Source: Raillietiella orientalis | Taxonomy: Eukaryota | DNA: 25,156 nt | NCBI GenBank assembly: GCA_036172245.1 | Contig: JAYWIR010000040.1 | Coordinates: forward strand, 1,984,001-2,009,156 | Reading direction: 5' to 3' | Shown: piece by piece, positions 12,080-25,156 of the stretch | Position numbering within the stretch: the first letter of the stretch is position 1 | Layout: the number at the start of each line of letters is the position of its first letter | Translations under genes and position numbers: made by a program | Notes under the pieces: model-generated | The model's database searches: none | What the model saw: the letters and a program-made list of their open reading frames with translations, nothing else | Told to the model about the DNA's origin: nothing

Positions 12080-13045
12080 CGAATGTGCGTCACCGGCTGA
12101 AATTGACTCTGGTAACATGATCGCTTACACAAGAAAGAGCTGAAGTGGCCCCTCAATCACTGCCAATGACAGCAAGGCTTGTCCATCTGTTAATTCGATG
12201 CGAATCTGCTTCTTCTTCCGTAGGTGCTGTCGTTCCTCAGCAAAGTTTCTGTTCCGGAGAGTAGCCCACCTTGGTCTCCCAGAGCATGCACCCTTTCTCC
12301 CCGATGTGCTCTGCCCGTCTCCTTGAGATCTCGAGTTCACTCATCAAGTGCGCATTCCCATGAACACAAGGATCTCTCAAGGATCGATGCGAGGGCTCCT
12401 CTCGTGGTGAAACGGAGAACCAGTCCTCAGTAATTGTCCTCTTTGAGTTGGCCGTACTGATTGGCTGGTAGAGGCGAGCAACGTTCATTCTTCACTCTGA
12501 CTGGAGTACCAGAAAGGGAACCGTTTTTCCAGAATAAGTTTTCAATCGAGTCCACCTCAGCTATAACTTCCTGGGAAATCCTTCTGCTCTAGACCATCGG
12601 CAGCTCCAATGTGACCGCCTCTCGACTGAGGAAAGTGACGGAATGTGACATCTGGCCTCTCGACTGTCACATTCCAGCGCGAGGAGGGTTGCCTGAAGGA
12701 CTGCTTTCACACCACGCGCTTCCTGCACCTGAAATCGATCCCGCCGTCCCTGCTGAGAGCTGCTCCCACAGGTGGCGGGTCAGGGCGCACCTCGCTTACT
12801 TGGAAGTCTTCAAACCAGTGTTTCCTGTCGAGCAGGAAGTGTGCTGCTGACGCCATATGATGCGGAGGGTGCCGTCTCGTTTCAAGGCGCCTCGAGAGGG
12901 AAAAGGAAGCAGCCATACTTTAGTCTGGAGAAAGGTGTGCAACCGACTGGATCCGGAACTTCTTTCCAGGAGACTTGAGAGGGCAGTAAACAACTGTCCA
13001 CTTACTCTTGTTCGAATCTGACGGAACTTCAAGGATGCTCCACGT
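12080..13045 (-). mobile_element. Degenerate Ty3/Gypsy RNase H-integrase relic, ending at the U2 fragment
   Basis: PGKKFRIQ (12970-12947, cf. lxGkkFxixTDH), GGIDFRCRKRVV, EGFPRKL (12584-12564, cf. GlPxxl), LYQPISTANSKRTIT (cf. PYhPqsNGxaERxixT), EGPLQLFLV (cf. GPxsYxV). Confidence 0.5.
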
Positions 13046-13055
13046 TCCAGAAGTA

Positions 13056-13093
13056 ATTCGCTTCTCGGCCCTTTGGCTAAGATCCAAATGCAG
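13056..13093 (+). ncRNA. U2: U2 spliceosomal snRNA 5' fragment (approx. nt 1-37), interrupted or pseudogenic
   Basis: attcgcttctcggccctttggctaagatccaaatgcag versus the conserved U2 5' end ATCGCTTCTCGGCCTTTTGGCTAAGATCAA(A)GTGTAG. 13058-13084 matches U2 nt 2-28 at 26/27. Similarity ends in the branch-point recognition region. Confidence 0.9.
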
Positions 13094-14970
13094 CCATGTA
13101 CTGAGTAAATGAGACATCTGACGGCTGCCTCGTGTATTCAGCGCAGCCGTGATGTCCACTAGACTCACCGACTTTAGCACCCACCAGACGAGGCAGACAG
13201 CTTGAGAAAACACTCTAAGAGAGACGAGATGAGTGGGCCAGAGACAGACGATCGTCACGAGGAACTTCTTCACGAAACAGCCCATCGATTCCAGGAATCC
13301 TACGCCCGAGCCAGGAAGATTATGCGAAGCGAGCCCGATCGTTATTATGATGTACTTTTTCCTGCTTAATCAAAAATGCTCTCTCCATCATGAGGGAAAG
13401 TTCCGATGAGAACATTCTTACGGCATACGCCGATGATCTGGCCATCTTTGAGGATTCTGAGCATGAACTGAGAAGGGGCTCAATCAGATACCCGAGAAAG
13501 TGTGCTCCGTCTTGTTTTATTTAAGGAAGACCACCCTGTGGTTGAAAACGACATTTCTGAAAGTTATAGATGGACGAATTCCGAATACAACCACGTCCAA
13601 AGTCTACAAATACTTAAGAAAACCGTTCGAAATGGAAGTTTTTAATATCCACCATCTAAAAAAAAAGGTTCCTTTCAAAGTCGGGAAAACATTGCTTTGC
13701 GGTCGTCCGCCCTGGCAAAAATAAGATTCGCTGAAAACCTTTTTCCCCCCAGCCTGGTGCACTTTGAGAGGCTGGGGACGCATCCAAAGGCTTATTGGGA
13801 GTTTGTTGACGGAGGAATTTGGTGAATGGTGAAGGATCTTTTGCATCTTCCACAAAGGGCAGAGACTCAGTACCTGCATGGAGACAGAAAGAAGGGCTGC
13901 CTGGTGCTTGAGTGGCTGTGCGATGAAGTGGATGCTTTCATCATGGACAGCTGCTTTAAGTTACTCACTTCGTCCGACGTCACTGACAAAGGACTTGCCA
14001 AGGAGACCAGTCGGGAGGTGGTATTCGAAAAGATTCTTCAAGCTCCCTCGGAAAAAGACCTGAAAAGTTCCTGTCTGGTGAATCCAGCTGAAAATTTTCT
14101 CGGGTCAGCGGTGTCCTGAGGAGCATGTGGATGGTGGGGAGGCAGGTCTCCTTCCGTGCTGGAGCTACATGGGAGTTTGCTGAACCGAAAGTGCTCATTG
14201 GCGAACTGTGTTTGAGCTTCTATCGCGAAGGAGATCTGCTGCCACGTTGCGGGCTACCCAACTAGAACGATCATGGAAAGAACTGATGAGAGAACACCCT
14301 GGTTTCAGAGGAAAGCCATGTGTTGCGCTGGTCCTCACTGCAGTTTGAACTACTTCATCGCCTCCGCAGATCATGCCAGACGTGCTCATTATCGCTTCAT
14401 CCATGTGGCATGGCTCAGTTTGCTCTCCACACGTGGAGCAATTAAAAGACCATTGTGGATCGCCCGTGTCGGAGATGTGGACCGTGAAATGAGACTCTGC
14501 CCACATGTGAAACCACCGCATGAGGCGTGCATCTCCCCAGTTCGCTGCCAGACACGATGCCTTCGTAGAAAGACTCTGCAATCATTGCAGCTGGATGGAA
14601 GATTATCTCAGTAGCCAGTGTGTCCCCCGGAGCGAATGCCAACCTACGTCTAGAGCTGGTAATCCAAAAGGACAATCGTCTGGCAATATTGGAATTTGCC
14701 TGTCCGTTTGAAAATGGAAAGGTAGCTTTCAGTACTACCAGACGACCAAAATAGTCCATACATGAAGACGGTTGTTCATCGGGTGAATCGAAAAGGATTA
14801 CCGACTAAGGCCTTTGTAGTTGGTTCACTTGGATTCTGGGATCCTGACAAAGACAGAATCGTTCGCGATTTAGGACTCCCTAGGTTACTCCCCGAAAACA
14901 TGAGGCAGCTCATGGTTGCCTCATGCATTGGGGCAGCCGCGACGTTTCATCGACTTGGGCACCCACAAGA
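13094..14970 (+). mobile_element. Degenerate Utopia-type non-LTR retrotransposon (NeSL-related, RT + CCHC + restriction-like endonuclease)
   Basis: AYADDLAIF (YADD 13426-13437), PRKC, YKYL, PWQK*DSLKTFFP (13710-13748), LPQRAETQYLHG, FKLLTSSD, YRFIH, CRRCG..ETL/PHV (from 14467), RHDAFVERL, ILEFACPFEN (PFEN 14704-14715), AFVVGSLGFWDP (~14810-14845), MRQLMVASCI. Multiple stops and frameshifts. Lies directly downstream of a U2 5' fragment. Confidence 0.9.
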
Positions 14971-15010
14971 TAACGCCGATAATTTGAAGGAATACGCAAC
15001 GCAGGATGAT

Positions 15011-15067
15011 ACGGATGGGGCTGCGAACAAACGACCGTGATGTGCAGCACAGTGGGGAACGGCTTCA
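15011..15067 (+). ncRNA. Possible highly degraded U2 snRNA 3' portion (stem-loops III/IV)
   Basis: acggatggggctgc and cgaccgtgatgtgcagcacagtggggaacggc loosely resemble arthropod U2 3' sequence as I recall it (acggag..ggggcttgc; gacccggtattgcagtaccgccgggatcggc), in the expected position and orientation. The match is weak. Confidence 0.25.
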
Positions 15068-17204
15068 AGAACCGACTCGCTCATCCCAGGATCCTGACTA
15101 TACAGGGACGAAGATATTGAAGGCAGGAGAGGAGGAATGAAATGGAAGTAGGGAAAGGTTTCTGTCGCAGAGGAAACGAGCAGAACTCTTGACTGGAAGA
15201 TTGGAGTTTGGTTCTCAAGGACGGGCTGTGTGGCATTCCGACAAAAATGCTTCCCAAGAAGGGAGTGGGTTCCTGAAAAGAGAGAGAGAGAACAAGGATT
15301 CTCGGAAAGACCTGCAGATACAGGAAGAAGAGTTGCCTGCGCTTCCCGAAAGTGACAGCAAAGTTTGTGGAAGACAGGCTGAACGCACTCCAGTGCAGGC
15401 ACTGCTTCGTAAGTCTCAGGCGCTTGGCTAAGTTGGCTGCTGGAAGGGAGGCGCGACCTGGAGAGAAGGGCATTCCATGTTTGCACCTCCTGGACTGCAT
15501 CGTACCGCACAGTCGCCTTTCAGGTTTGGCGCAACGATGGAGGAAGCGACGTCAGTGCAAAGAAGAAATGGCGGCAAGAGTTTTTGCACCTTAGGTGGGG
15601 CATCCTTCAAGAAACCCCAGGACATAATCTGCAGTGCACACGAGGAAGATGTGGATGTCCTTGGAAACGTCCGGTTTTATTTGGAAAGAGAGACAGATGA
15701 ACGGCGAAGGCTGTGCAACCGTCAACGTCAGAGGAACGCCACGTGTTCCAGCGGCGCACCAAAAATTCACCTCGCTTGCCGATCCCACAGGGATGCGAGG
15801 AGCAGGAAGCTTGAAAAGCGCCGCTTCCGTCATCATCAGTGGAGGAGCCTAGGACTCGTGTTGTCGGCGAGAGAGGCGCACTGCCACAGGCGTTGGCATC
15901 GCAGGACTTGCTAAAAAATTTGATCCGAACTTCCATGACCCTCTAGCACCTTCTGCATCTCACCTTCTTTTGTCGTGCTCTTTCCTCTGCCGGGCTGCGG
16001 CCCCGCAGAGGAAGATCGTGACCTTTCTTGCTCCCTTCTCTCGTTTGCCCTCCGCTTGCTGTCTGGAGCCGTCCGTTCAAGAGCATGGCTTTGCCGTGCC
16101 ACTGTACAGATCGCAGAGTACGATTGGCCGAGATGATGCAGCGTAGACGTGATGCAGAGAACAAGACAGGCGTAAGGCTCGAGGTTCGGTCACCAACCGA
16201 ACGAGCTGCTGCAGTCAGCCTGTAGCCTTGGGAACAGAAGATTCTATGAGTTCGGAAGAACCGAGAGGATTCTTCGAGGACACGATCGGTCGGCGGCCTC
16301 ACGAAGACACTTCCTTCCCCTGCGTCGAGAAGCGGAAGGGGTCGCGTGTCTCACCCAGACCTTCCGCGAGGCGGCTCAGCGGGGGCACCGAACCCGCGGG
16401 CAGGAGGCCTGCAGGAACATCGTCTGGCACTTCCGGCTCTCGCTTTCGCGAGCCTCTCGACTCGCGGGGCAGCTGGGGACCGACTCTCAAGTGCAGGTCA
16501 AAGGAACCTCTCCATACGAGGGGTGAGGAGTGCAGCTCCCCTCCTCCGCCCCAGGGGGACTCCGCGTTCCGGCAGCGTCCTCTGCTAACCCTTCCCCGTC
16601 CCGGGGCTGCCCAATGCTCTCTCAGAGACGGTTCGGGGTTCACGGAGGTCCCGCTGCCTGGAGAGCGGCGAAGGATGACGGCAGCTTCGCGGGTGAGGAA
16701 CAACCGCAGCCGAGCGCCGCCGCGGACGCCGTGCCTTCTTCCCCTCCCCCTTCCCCCTCTTTGCTTTCCTTTTTCCTCAGTGTTCACAACACCGTTTCAC
16801 AGAGGTGGAAAAGGAGGGCGAAGGGGTGCAAACTCTGCCGCGTCCTTTAGCGCACGTCGGGTCATGGCTGCGCGCGCCAAGGATGGGAGGATGGGAGCGA
16901 GCGCGCGAGGAGGGAGGAATGCATCTCACGTGCTCATGTCATTTCCACACGATGACGACACCGCGGCTCGGGTTATCGGATGGCGGGAGAGTGCCCCGCC
17001 GCGCGCTTCTTTTTTTTTTTTTGGACTCTCCTCCCCTCCCCCCTCTCTCTCTCTTTTCTTTTTCCCGTCTTCCAATACGCAGAAGCATTCCGGGCGGGTG
17101 CGGGAGCACCCGCTTTTCTCATGTGACCGAGCGCTCCCCGCGGGAAGCGGCCGCTCCCTTGGCCAGACTTTCCCTCATGCACCGGCGTGAATTTTCGTCA
17201 GTCT

Positions 17205-17290
17205 GCATCTTCTCTCTCCCTCTTTCTCTCTTCCTCTTTCTTTTTTTCCTTTTTCCTTTTTTTTTTCTTTTTTTTTTTCCTTTTCTTTTT
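17205..17290. repeat. Long polypyrimidine / low-complexity T-C tract
   Basis: About 85 nt almost exclusively T and C; a second tract lies at ~17007-17070. Confidence 0.9.
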
Positions 17291-17427
17291 GGTGCACGCG
17301 CGTGTGCCCCGGCTGACGCTGTCCCTGCTCTTCCTCTCTCTGCATAGGCGCGGTCGATCTTCAGGGACGACGGATGCTCGAGGGGTCACGGAGAGAGGAG
17401 GCCTCTTCTTTCACGATGCAACTTTTA

Positions 17428-17441
17428 GCGCGCGCGCGCGC
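17428..17441. repeat. (GC)7 alternating tract
   Basis: gcgcgcgcgcgcgc read directly. Confidence 0.9.
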
Positions 17442-17590
17442 GGAGAAGGGGCTTTTGGACGGGGAAGAAAGCAGCTGCTGGCAAAGAGGAGACTGAGCGA
17501 CCCGGAAGCCCTGTCGAAGAGGCAGCCTCTCCGAACTCCTCATTCTTCGGCGGATCCAAAGAACCGCGGAGCGGGAAGCGAAGGGGCAGC

Positions 17591-17623
17591 AGATGACCCC
17601 CCACGTCTCCTGGGGGGTCATCT
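17591..17623. repeat. Perfect 13-bp inverted repeat, 7-nt loop
   Basis: agatgacccccca-cgtctcc-tggggggtcatct. Confidence 0.95.
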
Positions 17624-20099
17624 CGCTAGGAAACTCCTCGCTTCACTCCTGGAAGCCGCAGAACTGGAGGACCAGGAGAAGGAGACGGCATCCTCGCGAA
17701 CAGCACCGAAACGGTTGGTTCTCCTCTTCTCCACCTCAGAGCAGAAGAGCATTCTGCGGAGCAGGAGTCCCATCTTCCTTCCGCTCGTCGAGGGGACAGA
17801 CCGGCGGGCAGCCGCCGGAAGTGAGACTCCGGGCCGCGGCAGGCTGCTCCAGGGCAGCCCTTCCCTCTTCTGGAAGACAAAGGAGCCGAGAAACGGAGCG
17901 GGGATGCCGGTGAGATGCGTCGTTCGGGACAGCAGCGCGTCTTTGATGCTTGCCGCGGGGCCTCCCACGACACGCTTCGAGCAGCCCGGCCGGCGCGACG
18001 CCGCAGTTCCTCGCCCGCTCGGCCGCGGCGGCTGCGAAGCTGCCCCTTCTGCGTCGCCATGGAGCGGAGCCGAGCGTTCCCAGAGACGCTTCTGCGCGAC
18101 CTCCCATCCACCTCACCCGCGGAGGGTCCTCTCGGTGACTCTTCTCCCTGCGCAGCGCGCATGCGTCTTCGCAGCTTGAGAAGGCGGTGGAATCCTTGGA
18201 CAGCCTCTCCACGGTGGCCCGACGGTGGGAGGCGGCGCTCTCCTTCCTCCCCCCCCCTCCCCCTCCTCCCGAGACCGCCTTCCCGCTCGCACGTACGCAC
18301 GCGCTCTCGCTTACGCGCAGGAATTCCTCCGGATAAACATCGGCGCTCGCCTATTTCGTCACGAGCGAGGCGAGGCGACGAGGGCGGTTGCTTCACACTC
18401 CGGGCAAGGCCGTCGACGACCTGCGTAGCAGCGGCGGCCGGAAGAGGAGGGAGAGAGGAGGGGAAAGGGGAGGACTCCCATCCTCAAGAAATGCCTGCCG
18501 GCTTCCTCACCAAAAGGAGGGGCGTGGGGTGGGTTCGGCGAAACTCGGGAAGCGGCACAGGAAGCAGCTCGTCTCCTGGAGATGTGAGGGCGCTGCGAGC
18601 GAGGCTGCGTCGCTGGAACGACTCCGCATCTTCCCGGCCCCGAGAGGAGTCGGCGGGATCCTCGACCCGGCCCGCCGAGCAGGCTGGATGAAGAGGAAGG
18701 AGCGCTGCTTCCACAGCCGCCTCCCGACCCGCTGCGAGCTCCGGGATCTCTTGTTGCGTAAAAGAGCTGCCGATGACGTCTCTGCCGTCGCCCCCGTATC
18801 GTCGCAGCAGCCGCCGCAAGGTGCGCTCGCTCGCCACCCGTCTCCCCGCCTGCCCCGCGGCTCGCGCGCGCGGCTCGTCCGAACGTTCGCGCGACCTCGG
18901 GGGAGGAAGCTGCCGAGACCGAAGGAAAAGGCTGCGCGATCCGGAAGCAGCGGCTCTAGAATGCCTGCGGGGGTTTCCTTCCTCGGGAGGCAACGAGAAA
19001 GGAGGGGAGGTTTCTCCAAGGCAACCCCGCTCCAGCCCAGGCGAACGAGCAGCTCGGTGGGAGAGGTGCAGCAGGCAGTTATCTTGGTCCCAAGGCCATC
19101 CGAGTGGTCCCTCCGTTCTCGAACGATCCGTTAGTTTTCCGAGGGGCTCCAGGGCGAAGAGCACGCGAGACTGCGCTCAGGATGCGCAGCCTTTTCGGAA
19201 CGGGAAGGATCGATGGAGGCCGTGAGTGGAGGCGGTCGCGGCAGTTGGTCCGCGGCCCAAGGATGTCTTTCGCTCCAGCGGGTGGAGGTGGTTTCCCTCT
19301 TGCGGAGAGTGATGGCGCCCTCCGCAGAGAGGGAGCGCAGCAGAGGGGACCTCACGCCCGGGAAGCAGCCAGGGTCAAGAGGGTCCTCAGCCCCTTTTCC
19401 TCTCCCGGTAGCCATGTTGAAGCCGCTGGGTCGCGCCGCGCAGCTGAAACTCCGCCAGCTGCAGGATGAACCTCTGTGATCGGAGCCACCTTTCCTCCAT
19501 CTTACCCAAGCCGAGCGTCGCAGACTGCGGGAAGCACCATCATTCACCGCCAAACCCACGGCCAGTGCCTCTGGCGCACCGAGAAAACACACGCGCACAC
19601 TCCGCCGTGCGCCCTGAATAAAGAAAGGGCCAAAGAAGGATCCTCCAGGTTCGTTCCGGGAACCCGCCTTCAGATGCTAGGAGAAGCTTACATCCTTCGG
19701 GCATTCCTCTTCCGGGTGGCGGCGGATGAGATGAAGGGGAGGGACAGCAGGGAACGAGAAAGGGAAGAGATCATGCTGCAGAGCGGAAGCTCCTGACCCG
19801 CACTGCGGAGCCGACTCCCGATGCCCGAACCGTTCTCGGGCACAGCTTCAGCGCCTCATCATCAAAGTCTCCTCTCTCCTTCCTGGAGGGATCCCCTCAC
19901 CTCGAGCAGGGTGTGGGTCCTTGCTCGCGCCCCGCGATATGCATGGAGGAGACAGCCACGTGTCCACTGCTGATAGTTACCGGGGTTACCCCTCTACCAT
20001 ATGCTTTGGCCGCGGCTACTCCATAGAGACTTCAAACACCCGGGAGACAAAAGGGAATTGAAAGGAGACCGGCATTCGACCTGCATCACCTCTGACGCG

Positions 20100-21110
20100 G
20101 AAGGTCGGCCTGTCAGATGTTCACTGCCAACCTGCGCGCCGCCCGTCCTCCCCGATGGGCGGAGGCTGAGCGCTCCGCAGACCGACCGGGAATTCAGCGT
20201 TGTCGCCGAGCGGACCTCTCGTGCCGCACCGTCTTTGGAGCAGCGGGCAAGCAAGGAGGTGGTATGGGGAAGGGGGTCTGAGCCCCATCCTCAAGACAGG
20301 ATGCTCGCTGCGTTTTCGGTCCGTCTTCGGCCGATGGTGTGCTTCCTGGAGACGCGCCCAAAACTCCGCCCTAAATGGGAATCGGAGAACCCGGAGTGAA
20401 GGCCAGTCTGGACCAGGGGACAACCTCTCAGACGGGATGCGAGCAGCGCGCGCGTGAGGGCGCACCAAGGGGTTCGCTCCACAGTCGTCTGGCACCCACT
20501 CGCCCGTCTCTCCGGTCCCAGAAAGATCTTCGTCCGCTGGCGAGCTCCTGCCCGTCTCACGGCCCACTGCAGCTTCTCCGCATCATCGTTGGATCGCGTG
20601 GGCGGAAGACGCCTCATTGAAGAGCGCGCGTGGTCCACTTTCACGCGCGGTAGCGGCGAGGAAGCCGCCGTTTCGGTCCGCTGCGAAGGAGGGGAACGGA
20701 AATGAGACGGCGTCCCGCTACTGCGGCGGCCCAAGCGTCTCCGGGGCCTCCCCGTTTTTCCGTCTCTCTCGCGGGACCTCGCGCAGGGACTCGCCCGACG
20801 TCGACGGAAACCGCTCGGCCGTGACCGAAGGGTCGGCAGCGTCGAGGCAGCTTCGTTGCCACGAGAGACGCCGCCTCGTAGGTCAGCGAGCGGCCCTGCT
20901 CTGACGCACCGGCGCTCTCTCCCCTTCCTTGCTGCTGCTCCTCCACGAAGCTGAAGAGTTTCCCCTTCCTATCGTATTGGGCTCCGCGCCCACGTGAAGG
21001 AGGAAGTGAGGGAGGGAGGGAGGAAAGTAGGGAGGCTGAAAGGCGGCAGGTGGGGCCATTCTCTGCCCGCGAGTTTGCGGAGACCCCTCGTCCCATGGTA
21101 CCAGTATCCC
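20100..21110 (+). mobile_element. Degenerate Ty3/Gypsy RT-RNase H relic
   Basis: PPVLPDGRRLSAPQTDREFS...APSLEQ (PDG from 20151, cf. KpdGxxRlcvDyRxlN...Pxie), HPQDRMLAAF (cf. pxdrxxTaF), SQKDLRPL, SGASPF (cf. DASpy), ASRQLRCHER (20839-20868, cf. ASRxLtxaEr), PLVPW. Confidence 0.6.
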
Positions 21111-21329: not shown

Positions 21330-21910
21330 AACCACGAGGGGGATAAACACCGAGGAAGGTCACGAAAGCAAGTTCTCTGAACTTGCTTTCGTGACCTTTT
21401 TGCTGTCCTTTCAGGAAAATACGGTCATAACTTGAATCAATTTCAGGATTATTAAACTAGTCTGGAAAAATAGGTAATGACTTATACTCTGAGGAATGTT
21501 CAAATCTTTGCCATTCCTCTTGAACAGCCTCGCTCAACTGTCATTGCCAACATGTCATACTAGTATTTCAGCCTTGCCAGAGCTTTCACTTTATTACTCA
21601 ATTCCTCGCCATCATCAAACGCAGGGTGACCTCTTTTTCGTGACCTCTGGAAACCTTGTTCGTCCCTTGCTTGCAATGGAAGGGAAACTGGACTCTTCCG
21701 AACTCTTCCTACGGGCACGCTAGGCATGCTCCCCTTTGATCCGTTATTAGTCCTATCCTGGAGCACTTCCGCTCCTGGGACCTCTCCTCTTTTCGGATGG
21801 CCAGTCACCTCACTGCTTCGCTCGGCATCTGGCGCGGAGATGTCGGTCGCTTTCTTCTCCGCTGCTGCGCAATGCGTTTGGTGCCCCGGCGGCTGCAGCA
21901 GCTCATGGAA
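21330..21910 (-). mobile_element. Degenerate Ty3/Gypsy protease-RT relic
   Basis: Knuckle-like CSRRGTKRIA, protease-like NNGSKGS, RKSPVSL..EQ..RG, QLSEAVQEE (cf. LNxavxRe), YFSRL (21472-21458, cf. yFSkLD), AFVTFLGVY (~21369-21343, cf. aFxTpfGxy). Confidence 0.5.
21356..21398. repeat. Perfect 20-bp inverted repeat, 3-nt loop
   Basis: aaggtcacgaaagcaagttc-tct-gaacttgctttcgtgacctt. Confidence 0.97.
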
Positions 21911-22920: not shown

Positions 22921-23143
22921 TTTTTTGTTTGTGTTACGCTTCACGCGCAGATTTCGGGTTACGTTCGTACGTCGGGCGAAGAGCCGAGCCCGTTCTCTCG
23001 GGCGAGCGTGCCGGAGTGGGGCTGCGGCCCGCCGAAGTCGGCGGGCTCCGTCTTTCTCCAGACCGAGAAAGAGCACTGCTTGCCCATTTTTCTCTTTTGC
23101 GAACGCAGACGCATGAGGATGGAGCAACGGCAATAAATCAAGA

Positions 23144-25156
23144 CCGCAAGCTGCAAATGGACGCTTCGGAGAGAGGCGCAAAAGTGCAAAGGTGTCATCT
23201 GCTGATTTCGAATTGATTACAAACCTTTAAACGTCCAAATTCGGTCCACATAATGATTCAAGTAGAAATAAAACATTCCCTTTGTAATTACGACACTGGT
23301 AACCATGAAAACGAAAAAGAGTCCAAAGTGTCCCACCCTATGGAAAGGACGCACTTTTCTCAATGTTCTTCTGAACCCAGTCAAATGTACGTATGTGCAG
23401 CTATCCATGACACGAATTTGCCGCTCCCTGCAAATGGACGCTCCGGGGAGAGGCGCAAAAGTGCAATGTATCATCTGCTTATTTCGAATTGATTACAAAC
23501 CCTGAAACTTCCAAATTCGGTCCACATAATGATTCAAAGAGAAGGAAAACATTCCCTTTCTAATTACGACACTGGTAACCATGAAAACGAAACAGAATCC
23601 AAAGTGCCCCACCCTAAGGAAAGGACGCACTCCTCTCAATGTTCTTCTGAACCCAGTCAAATGTACGTATGTGCAGCTATCCGTTACACGAATTTGCCGC
23701 TCGCTGCAAATGGACGCTTCGGGGAGACGCGCAAAAGTGCAAAGGTGTCATCTGCTAATTTCGATCTGATTACAAACCTTTAAACGTCCAAATTCGGTCC
23801 ACATAATGACTCAAGTAGAAGTAAAACATTCCCTTTCTAATTACGACACTGGTAACCATGAAAACGAAACAGAGTCCAAAGTGCCCCACCCTAAGGAAAG
23901 GACGCACTCCTCCCAATGTTCTTCTGAACCCAGTCAAATGTACGTATGTGCAGCAATCCATGACACGAATTTGCCGCTCCCTGCAAATGGACGCTTCGGG
24001 GAGAGGCGTAAAAGTGCAAAGGTGTCATCTGCTTATTTCGAATTGATTACAAACCCTGAAACGTCCTAATTCGGTCCACATAATGAATCACAGAGAAGGA
24101 AAACATTTTATTTCTAATTCCCACACTGGTAACCATGAAAACGAAACAGAGTCCAAAGTGCCCCACCCTAAGGAAAGGACGCACTCCTCCCAATGTTCTT
24201 CTGAACCCAGTCAAATGTACGTGTGAGCAGCTTTCCATGACACGAATTTGCCGCAAGCTGCAAATGGACGCTTCGGAGAGAGGCGCAAAAGTGCAAAGGT
24301 GCCATCTGCTGATTTCGAATTGATTACAAACTTTGAAACGTCCAAATTCGGTCCACATAATGATTCAAGTAGAAGTAAAACATTCTTTTTGTAATTACGA
24401 CACTGGTAACCATGAAAACGAAACAGAGTAAAAGTGCCTCACCCTATGGAAAGGACGCACTTTTCTCAATGTTCTTCTGAACCCAGTCAAATGTACGTGT
24501 GTGCAGCTTTCCATGACACGAATTTGCCGCTCGCTGCAAATGGACGCTTCGGAGAGAGGCGCAAAAGTGCAAAGGTGTCATCTGCTGATTTCGAATTGAT
24601 TACAAACCCTGAAACTTCCAAATTCGGTCCACATAATGAATCACAGAGAAGGAAAACATTCCATTTCTAATGCCGACACTGGTAACCATGAAAACGAAAC
24701 AGAGTTAAAGTGCCCCACCCTATGGAAAGAACGCACTTTTCTCAATGTTCTTCTGAACCCAGTCAAATGTACGTGTGTGGAGCTTTCCATGACACGAATT
24801 TGCCCGTCGCTGCAAATGGACGCTTCAGAGAGAGGCGCAAAAGTGCAAAGGTGTCATCTGCTTATTTCGAATTGATTACAAACCCTTAAACGTCCAAATT
24901 GGGTCCACATAGTGAATCAAAGAAAAGGAAAACATTCCCTGTCTAATTCCGACACTGGTAACCATGAAAACGAAACAGAGTCCAAAGTGCCCCACCCTAA
25001 GGAAAGGACGCACTCCTCTTAATGTTCTTCTGAACCCAGTCAAATGTACGTATGTGCAGGTATCCATGACACGAATTTGCCGCTCGCTGCAAATGGACGC
25101 TTCGGGGAGAGGCGCAAAAGTGCAAAGGTGTCATCTGTTGATTTCGAATTGATTAC
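23144..25156. repeat. Tandem satellite DNA, 276-277 bp monomer, ~7.3 copies, runs off the window end
   Basis: The anchor GATTAC recurs at 23215, 23491, 23768, 24045, 24322, 24598, 24874 and 25151 (spacings 276, 277, 277, 277, 276, 276, 277). Monomers align along their whole length with scattered substitutions. Confidence 0.98.

Follow-up and report, generated by a model that had tools for sequence, protein, structure and literature searches.

Between positions 13057 and 15122, a 25,156-nt stretch of Raillietiella orientalis DNA (contig JAYWIR010000040.1; the whole stretch is called the window below) carries the broken remains of a retrotransposon that lacks long terminal repeats (non-LTR), preceded on the same strand by the 5′ end of U2 small nuclear RNA (snRNA). 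We regard this relic as probably a tandem, 5′-truncated Utopia-lineage insertion, now dead, in what was once a U2 gene. Utopia elements are non-LTR retrotransposons of the NeSL clade that possess a restriction-like endonuclease (RLE) and target U2 snRNA genes (Kojima & Jurka 2015; PMC4640811). What the original prediction, made from the letters of the window, had proposed was an RLE element of the Utopia type that targets U2 and is joined to its target; this central claim holds up, in that several relatives of the relic are followed by U2 sequence lacking its first ∼38 nt. The layout that emerges is as follows (RT, reverse transcriptase; UTR, untranslated region).

13057-13092, + strand: U2 snRNA 5′ fragment; nt 1-28 near-perfect (13057-13084), nt 29 to about 36 degraded (13085-13092)
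13093-13108, + strand: 5′ junction zone; the U2/element boundary lies within 13085-13108
13109-13329, + strand: copy A, element 3′ tail only (last ∼45 codons and 3′ UTR), homologous to 14900-15122
13325-13645, + strand: copy B, RT remnant; starts in motif 4, with YADD at 13426-13437 followed by GL.I..EK and YKYL; frame 1, then frame 0; RVT_1 E 0.016
13646-14455, + strand: copy B, RT thumb and linker; includes a FADWRFIHRARLN-like stretch; mostly frame 2, frame 1 at about 14101-14214
14458-15037, + strand: copy B, CCHC knuckle and PD-(D/E)XK RLE; CRRCG, RHD, LRLELV, PFEN and GSLGFWDP, spread over all three frames
15038-15122, + strand: copy B, stop (15038-15040) and short 3′ UTR; homology to copy A ends here, marking the 3′ end of the element
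15123-16400, no strand: 3′ flank outside the element; without U2 sequence and without a target-site duplication with 12956-13056

The U2 snRNA fragment

Nucleotides 1-28 of U2 are read on the + strand at 13057-13084 with two differences. The 24-mer CTTCTCGGCCTTTTGGCTAAGATC from the U2 5′ end is found at 13061-13084 with one mismatch; 100 dinucleotide shuffles yielded no match to it at all, even when up to three mismatches were allowed. Using cmscan, positions 1-28 of the Rfam U2 model (RF00004) are aligned to 13057-13084 with high posterior probability. The total score is 22.5 bits, corresponding to an E-value of 0.014 on 401 nt and of 0.89 on the whole window. As this is below the Rfam gathering score of 46, the U2 piece is a fragment and not a gene. 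At the gathering score no Rfam match is found in the whole window, and the U2 piece becomes visible only with an E-value threshold. An intact U2 from metagenome locus L014 (see below) is 92.6% identical to 13058-13084 over 27 nt.

Downstream of nt 28 the resemblance is degraded: at 13085-13092 (CAAATGCAG) six of the eight bases of U2 nt 29-36 are retained by eye, with one inserted base. Its end, at about nt 36, falls within the branch-point-binding GUAGUA, and the boundary between U2 and the element lies somewhere in 13085-13108. The 24-mer, the model alignment and this end point bear out what the original prediction had claimed, namely a near-perfect U2 5′ fragment that stops in the branch-point recognition region, and the cmscan check proposed there returns U2 at the expected place, below the gathering score. 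In Utopia elements the 5′ flank consists of the U2 gene up to about nt 38, with variation among families, and this is what 13057-13092 contains.

Two tandem partial copies

At 13073-13189, eight relatives produce weak tblastn matches through their C-terminal ends (E-values of 0.16-4.9 each), which prompted a comparison of that stretch with the element tail at the DNA level. Positions 13109-13329 align to 14900-15122 with 149 of 207 bases identical and a local score of 47, while 300 shuffles scored 12.5 ± 1.8 with a maximum of 21. By this alignment the relic is a composite in which a 3′-tail copy of ∼220 nt (copy A) is placed between the U2 piece and a 5′-truncated copy B (∼13325-15122). Reading along the + strand, U2 nt 1-∼36 is followed by the A tail and then by B, which extends from motif 4 of the RT as far as its own 3′ end, A adjoining B head to tail. 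The single-element layout of the original prediction is therefore incomplete, the two tandem partial copies having been overlooked. The element end that it put at 15067 also needs to be moved: we place the 3′ end of copy B near 15122, because the homology with copy A stops there. The two copies are ∼72% identical and may represent different subfamilies or be of great age. The tail of the open reading frame (ORF) in copy A (13178-13369) stays open for 63 codons, beyond the point that matches the copy B stop at 15038-15040.

The RLE tail is also repeated several times in tandem in P0003 (residues ∼610-1107) and in P0004, which are the best two protein matches of the relic (see below). In P0003 four such units of ∼133 amino acids (aa) follow one another in frame. 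Both gene models probably span tandem arrays of 5′-truncated copies, which echoes the arrangement of A and B. For Nasonia vitripennis, 20 Utopia 3′ ends that adjoin other Utopia copies have been reported versus 74 that adjoin U2 (PMC4640811).

The broken RT/RLE gene of copy B

In a three-frame translation of the + strand, YADD is found at 13426-13437, the CRRCG of a CCHC knuckle at 14467-14481, RHD at 14550-14558, PFEN at 14704-14715 and GSLGFWDP at 14822-14845. All of the motifs that had been listed for a non-LTR ORF relic on the strand of the U2 piece (YADD, a CCHC remnant, RHD, PFEN and GSLGxWDP) have thereby been located.

As a protein query (P0002) we used the frame-2 read-through of 13646-15040 with stops written as X, which was searched against 1.84 billion representatives. 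At E ≤ 1e-3 it matches 143 proteins, of which 24 also pass E ≤ 1e-10, the best being P0003 (5.5e-24, 37% identity). Pfam RVT_1 is present in 16 of the 18 matches that were scanned, upstream of the matched region. When the 143 matches were aligned back using tblastn, all 247 high-scoring segment pairs (E ≤ 1e-3) fell within 13300-15099 and nowhere else in the window. Judged by these alignments, the RT/RLE homology of the relic is beyond chance.

The collinear tblastn map of P0007 places residues 666-711 on 13351-13473, residues 731-816 on 13497-13754 and residues 797-1232 on 13703-14980. The frame path through copy B runs 1, 0, 2, 1, 2, 1, 0, 1, 2, which amounts to at least eight frame changes, and internal stops are found in addition. 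Motif 4 (∼13325-13351) is the first part of the RT that copy B retains. RT motifs 0-3 and all N-terminal parts are missing, including the zinc-finger region (one to three fingers in Utopia), and copy B is in this sense 5′-truncated inside the RT. In the endonuclease, the consensus of the relatives 'LRPDLV ... IIDVT.PFEN' reads 'LRLELV ... ILEFACPFEN', with the acidic residues of both 'PD' and 'IIDV' altered. Given the frame changes, the stops and the changed RLE residues, copy B is a dead gene, unable to move or to encode anything. The domain order that characterizes Utopia, with a CCHC knuckle and a PD-(D/E)XK endonuclease (rather than an apurinic/apyrimidinic endonuclease, APE) C-terminal to the RT, is retained as a broken remnant.

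Pfam searches with ten ORF pieces of the relic gave RVT_1 at an E-value of 0.016, under the cut-off. Four other families picked up in these pieces (E 0.061-0.45) were rejected as chance-level. The 104 aa C-terminal ORF of the relic, used as a query for longer homologous proteins, found none.

U2 sequence downstream of relatives

The clade of the relic was labelled through the flanks of its own relatives, and not through named Utopia, NeSL, R2, R4 or HERO references. Metagenome contigs were scanned using an alignment (A2) of ten CCHC and RLE segments from the protein matches, which yielded 47 loci. Ten of these contain U2 at or above the gathering score in cmscan. In eight (L003, L007, L015, L016, L029, L043, L044 and L046, of which L043 and L044 are the same sequence) U2 is on the same strand as the ORF and downstream of it, 130-700 nt past the stop. 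This downstream U2 begins at nt 38-40, at (A)UCUGUUCUU or CUGUUCUU, in seven of the eight, including both copies in L016; in L029 it begins later, at nt ∼84. The published 3′ junction of Utopia is U2 from nt 39 (PMC4640811). The U2 piece in the window ends at nt ∼36-38, where the downstream U2 of the relatives starts, which supports insertion at the Utopia target.

Forty-four loci have a stop, and in 12 of them the U2 8-mer CTGTTCTT is found no further than 1 kb downstream of it. In total the 166,727 bases of the loci contain the 8-mer 14 times on the plus strand, and 12 of these occurrences are the ones just described. The 8-mer adds short U2 pieces at L002, L026/L028 (identical) and L041, L032 being ambiguous; they join L003, L007, L015, L016, L043/L044 and L046, in which the element is followed by U2 from nt 38-40. 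In the two remaining loci with U2 at or above the gathering score, L014 (which includes one intact U2 of 137 bits) and L047, U2 is on the strand opposite to the element. No U2 5′ piece was found beside the 5′ ends of the relatives, most of the 47 loci being without a 5′ flank. A label lookup for P0007 and P0003 returned only 'arthropod/cnidarian/chordate RT-like clusters' and is uninformative on the clade.

Uninterrupted ORFs with RVT_1 are present in L007 (1273 aa, L007:1-4327) and L003 (966 aa, L003:3-3760), both cut by the contig start, and these two loci are candidates for intact or recently active Utopia elements. Locus L016 (L016:17-2093) contains a 5′-truncated U2, an element and another 5′-truncated U2, an array of disrupted U2 genes as described for Phytophthora. 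The closely related L014 (L014:1-2450) contains the intact U2 and a second U2 on the strand opposite to the element.

Placement of the relic

The relic matches the U2-flanked L007 with an E-value of 6e-16 over query residues 25-439 and L003 with 4e-12. Trees were built from the thumb and RLE segments of the relic (with X at the breaks), 44 protein matches and 20 locus ORFs; they are midpoint-rooted without an outgroup and contain no named Utopia, NeSL, R2, R4 or HERO sequences. In the LG+G4 tree the relic is found with L007 in a starred set of 31 rows with a Shimodaira-Hasegawa-like approximate likelihood-ratio (SH-aLRT) support of 98. Using LG+C20 with posterior mean site frequencies (PMSF) and after dropping L011, L013, L017, L027 and L028, both are again in the starred set, now of 28 rows with a support of 99. 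The U2-flanked loci occupy four separate deep branches. The RT/RLE of the relic groups with U2-targeting elements in these trees, albeit on a long branch and with no outgroup. Grouping with a clade that does not target U2 had been named in the original prediction as the outcome that would speak against it; the starred clade of the relic, in which U2-flanked L007 is included, is not of that kind.

Proposed course of events

On our preferred reading, target-primed reverse transcription would have carried an RLE-type element of the U2-targeting Utopia lineage into a U2 gene at about nt 38/39. The endonuclease would have nicked that gene, and the RT would have started at the 3′ end of the element RNA and broken off within the RT region, which left copy B. 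Copy A, no more than the last ∼220 nt of an element, would have come from a further template or from a further insertion at this nick, and the cDNA would then have been linked with the half of the U2 gene that lies upstream. The other half would have been lost later. The copy has since decayed, with at least eight frame changes, several stops and changes of the RLE acidic residues.

The missing U2 3′ half and other points of conflict

Several observations weigh against an insertion in a U2 gene. One is that U2 from nt 39 onward, the precise junction and the most constant feature of Utopia, is lacking after the 3′ end of the element. No cmscan match to U2 is found at E ≤ 10 in 14900-16400, across and beyond the 3′ end of copy B, and at E ≤ 5 no second U2 trace is seen in the whole window besides the 5′ piece. 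No further U2 is detected in the window by nhmmer with a U2 profile made from the loci or by blastn-short, and CTGTTCTT is absent from both of its strands. U2 nt 1-28 at 13057-13084 is thus the only U2 trace in the window. Ten of 11 Utopia families with a 5′ U2 flank also have a 3′ flank (PMC4640811); a lone 5′ half is therefore unusual and a later deletion must be assumed. The 3′ UTR of ∼85 nt is also shorter than the 130-700 nt of the relatives. Furthermore, U2 nt 29-36 are matched at only six of eight positions with an insertion or deletion, and the U2 breakpoint could be anywhere from nt 28 to nt 38.

The relatives and the trees contribute to this list as well. In 24 loci the sequence extends 700 nt or more beyond the stop; plus-strand U2 reaches the gathering score in only four of them, and the best-scoring locus, L021 (97.9 summed bits), has no U2 in 947 nt of flank. 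Many relatives are not visibly U2-flanked and the group is not uniformly so, which fits the 'weak specificity' families of PMC4640811. The relic itself is a long branch (1.6 and 2.5 in the two trees), so that its placement is uncertain.

Around the composite, the search for a target-site duplication gave a best local score of 14 compared with a shuffle mean of 14.7, and no poly(A) is present at 13329 or 15122. A 14-nt exact match to nt 26-39 of the L014 U2 at 23258-23271, within the satellite described below, is probably due to chance; cmscan sees no U2 there.

Alternative explanations

A chimeric retrocopy, which we consider unlikely, would place the event at a site outside U2, where the RT switched from the element RNA to U2 snRNA and copied the latter as far as its 5′ end, the U2 piece being inserted cDNA. 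The missing U2 3′ half is then expected, a U2 piece that begins exactly at nt 1 agrees with it, and the junction between A and B needs a template jump anyway. Chimeras of snRNA and long interspersed elements (LINEs) formed by template switching are documented in the part of PMC4494074 consulted. However, a jump onto an snRNA normally begins at its 3′ end and would leave a full-length or 5′-truncated U2 rather than nt 1-36. The break also matches the nt 38/39 target of the relatives, a coincidence that we estimate at roughly 1 in 10 to 1 in 20 if an RNA of ∼190 nt breaks at random, and the composite lacks a target-site duplication.

Less probable still is an RLE element of another or no target specificity (NeSL-, HERO- or R2-like) that lies beside, or has recombined with, a U2 pseudogene fragment. 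The clade comparison made without named references and the lack of U2 at most long-flank relatives leave room for it, as does the published position of NeSL, specific for spliced leaders, which falls within Utopia or adjacent to it (PMC4640811). Against this, the clade of the relic includes U2-flanked L007, the U2-flanked loci bracket the whole tree, and the U2 piece has the same orientation as the element and ends at the target position of the relatives. The thumb and RLE region of the relic moreover matches no solved R2 protein at E ≤ 1, although P0007 does so at 1.8e-62.

We think it very doubtful that U2 nt 1-36 and the 220-nt tail represent a Utopia-mobilized element resembling a short interspersed element (SINE), or a chimeric transcript with the U2 leader, driven by a U2 promoter, in a host lineage new for Utopia. 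As a rival to the U2 insertion, a SINE-like non-autonomous unit made of U2(1-36) and the 220-nt copy A, mobilized by Utopia and situated beside copy B, is highly improbable. An snRNA head with a LINE 3′ tail is the architecture of a SINE, and U2-headed SINEs exist in crocodilians according to the portion of PMC4494074 consulted (SINEU; SINEU-3 has a 32-bp U2 5′ piece). The window nevertheless offers a single instance, with neither poly(A) nor a target-site duplication, and a 5′-truncated copy at its own target accounts for the layout more simply. Finally, a chance resemblance of the 28-nt stretch to U2, for which the sub-gathering 22.5 bits and the whole-window E-value of 0.89 could be invoked, is scarcely credible in view of the shuffles without a match to the 24-mer, the agreement with the independent intact U2 of L014 and the position directly upstream of a member of a U2-targeting family in the same orientation.

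Comparison with known elements

Utopia has been reported from Amoebozoa, oomycetes and animals (PMC4640811), and Porifera Utopias are noted in the part of a 2026 RNA review consulted (PMC13580325). The relic shares with Utopia the order RT, CCHC, PD-(D/E)XK, the upstream U2 piece ending at nt ∼36-38, relatives with downstream U2 from nt 38-40 versus the published nt 39, and 5′-truncated and head-to-tail copies as reported in Nasonia. It differs in having no 3′ U2 half and in being a dead composite without N-terminal zinc fingers and RT motifs 0-3, and its membership is drawn through U2-flanked metagenome relatives rather than through named Repbase families.

R2 elements, which are specific for 28S ribosomal DNA (rDNA) and include the solved R2Bm, R2Tg and others, have the same layout of RT, CCHC and RLE and the same mechanism of target-primed reverse transcription, and E-values of P0007 against solved R2 proteins range from 1.8e-62 to 1.5e-43, the RT region giving the best-matching stretch. 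In contrast, the thumb and RLE region of the relic is without such a match, and the target piece is U2 and not 28S. No rDNA or rRNA is found in the window using cmscan, and neither the 28S insertion nor the R2-type protein that define R2 is seen. Keno, of the Tx1 clade, uses the same U2 site and has a 3′ flanking U2 sequence identical to that of Utopia but an APE-type endonuclease (PMC4640811), located N-terminal to the RT, whereas the relic has a C-terminal RLE.

NeSL-1 and its relatives belong to the same broad clade (PMC4640811) and have the same domain order. They differ in targeting spliced-leader genes. NeSL-1 has an N-terminal Ulp1 protease, in a region that is missing from the relic. 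The crocodilian SINEU family, headed by U1 or U2, likewise joins a short 5′ piece of U2 to the tail of a retroelement; in the part of PMC4494074 consulted it is described as poly(A)-tailed and apparently dependent on a Tx1-type LINE. The relic has a Utopia-like tail of its own, and occurs as one instance; of the dispersed copies, poly(A) and target-site duplications that mark SINEU-like families, the latter two are both absent.

The remainder of the window

The GC content of the window is about 55% and its CpG observed/expected ratio is 0.88; as CpG is not depleted, a vertebrate host such as the reptiles known for Utopia was rejected. A Pfam search of the 117 other ORFs of at least 95 aa gave no families, and outside the relic no recognizable coding domain is present in the 25 kb. 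By themselves, these features would suggest a protist rather than one of the animal hosts listed for Utopia. The region 16000-21000 is GC-rich (0.60-0.68) and of low complexity, with long open frames in six frames and no Pfam domain. A perfect 20-nt inverted repeat with a 3-nt loop is located at 21356-21398, where cmscan gives weak, sub-threshold matches resembling microRNA (miRNA) precursors. At 23048-25156 a tandem satellite with a unit of 276-277 bp is present in at least seven copies of 64-96% identity and runs off the end of the window.

Implications

Utopia is a published and widely distributed lineage, and the relic is probably another member of it and a dead one, so that by itself it adds little. 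Its modest value lies in pointing to a genome in which a U2-specific RLE element was once resident and may be so still. Should the host be outside the taxa listed for Utopia, the known range of the lineage would widen slightly. If the U2-headed unit with a Utopia tail that we consider very doubtful were nevertheless real, snRNA-headed SINEs would have originated twice independently, the second time in association with a site-specific RLE element. The U2-junction test can label RLE clades by their target without recourse to Repbase. NeSL and Utopia elements are among the sets screened as programmable insertion tools, according to the consulted part of the 2026 RNA review (PMC13580325), and L007 and L003, with uninterrupted Utopia-type ORFs and a precise U2 junction, are perhaps more useful than the relic.

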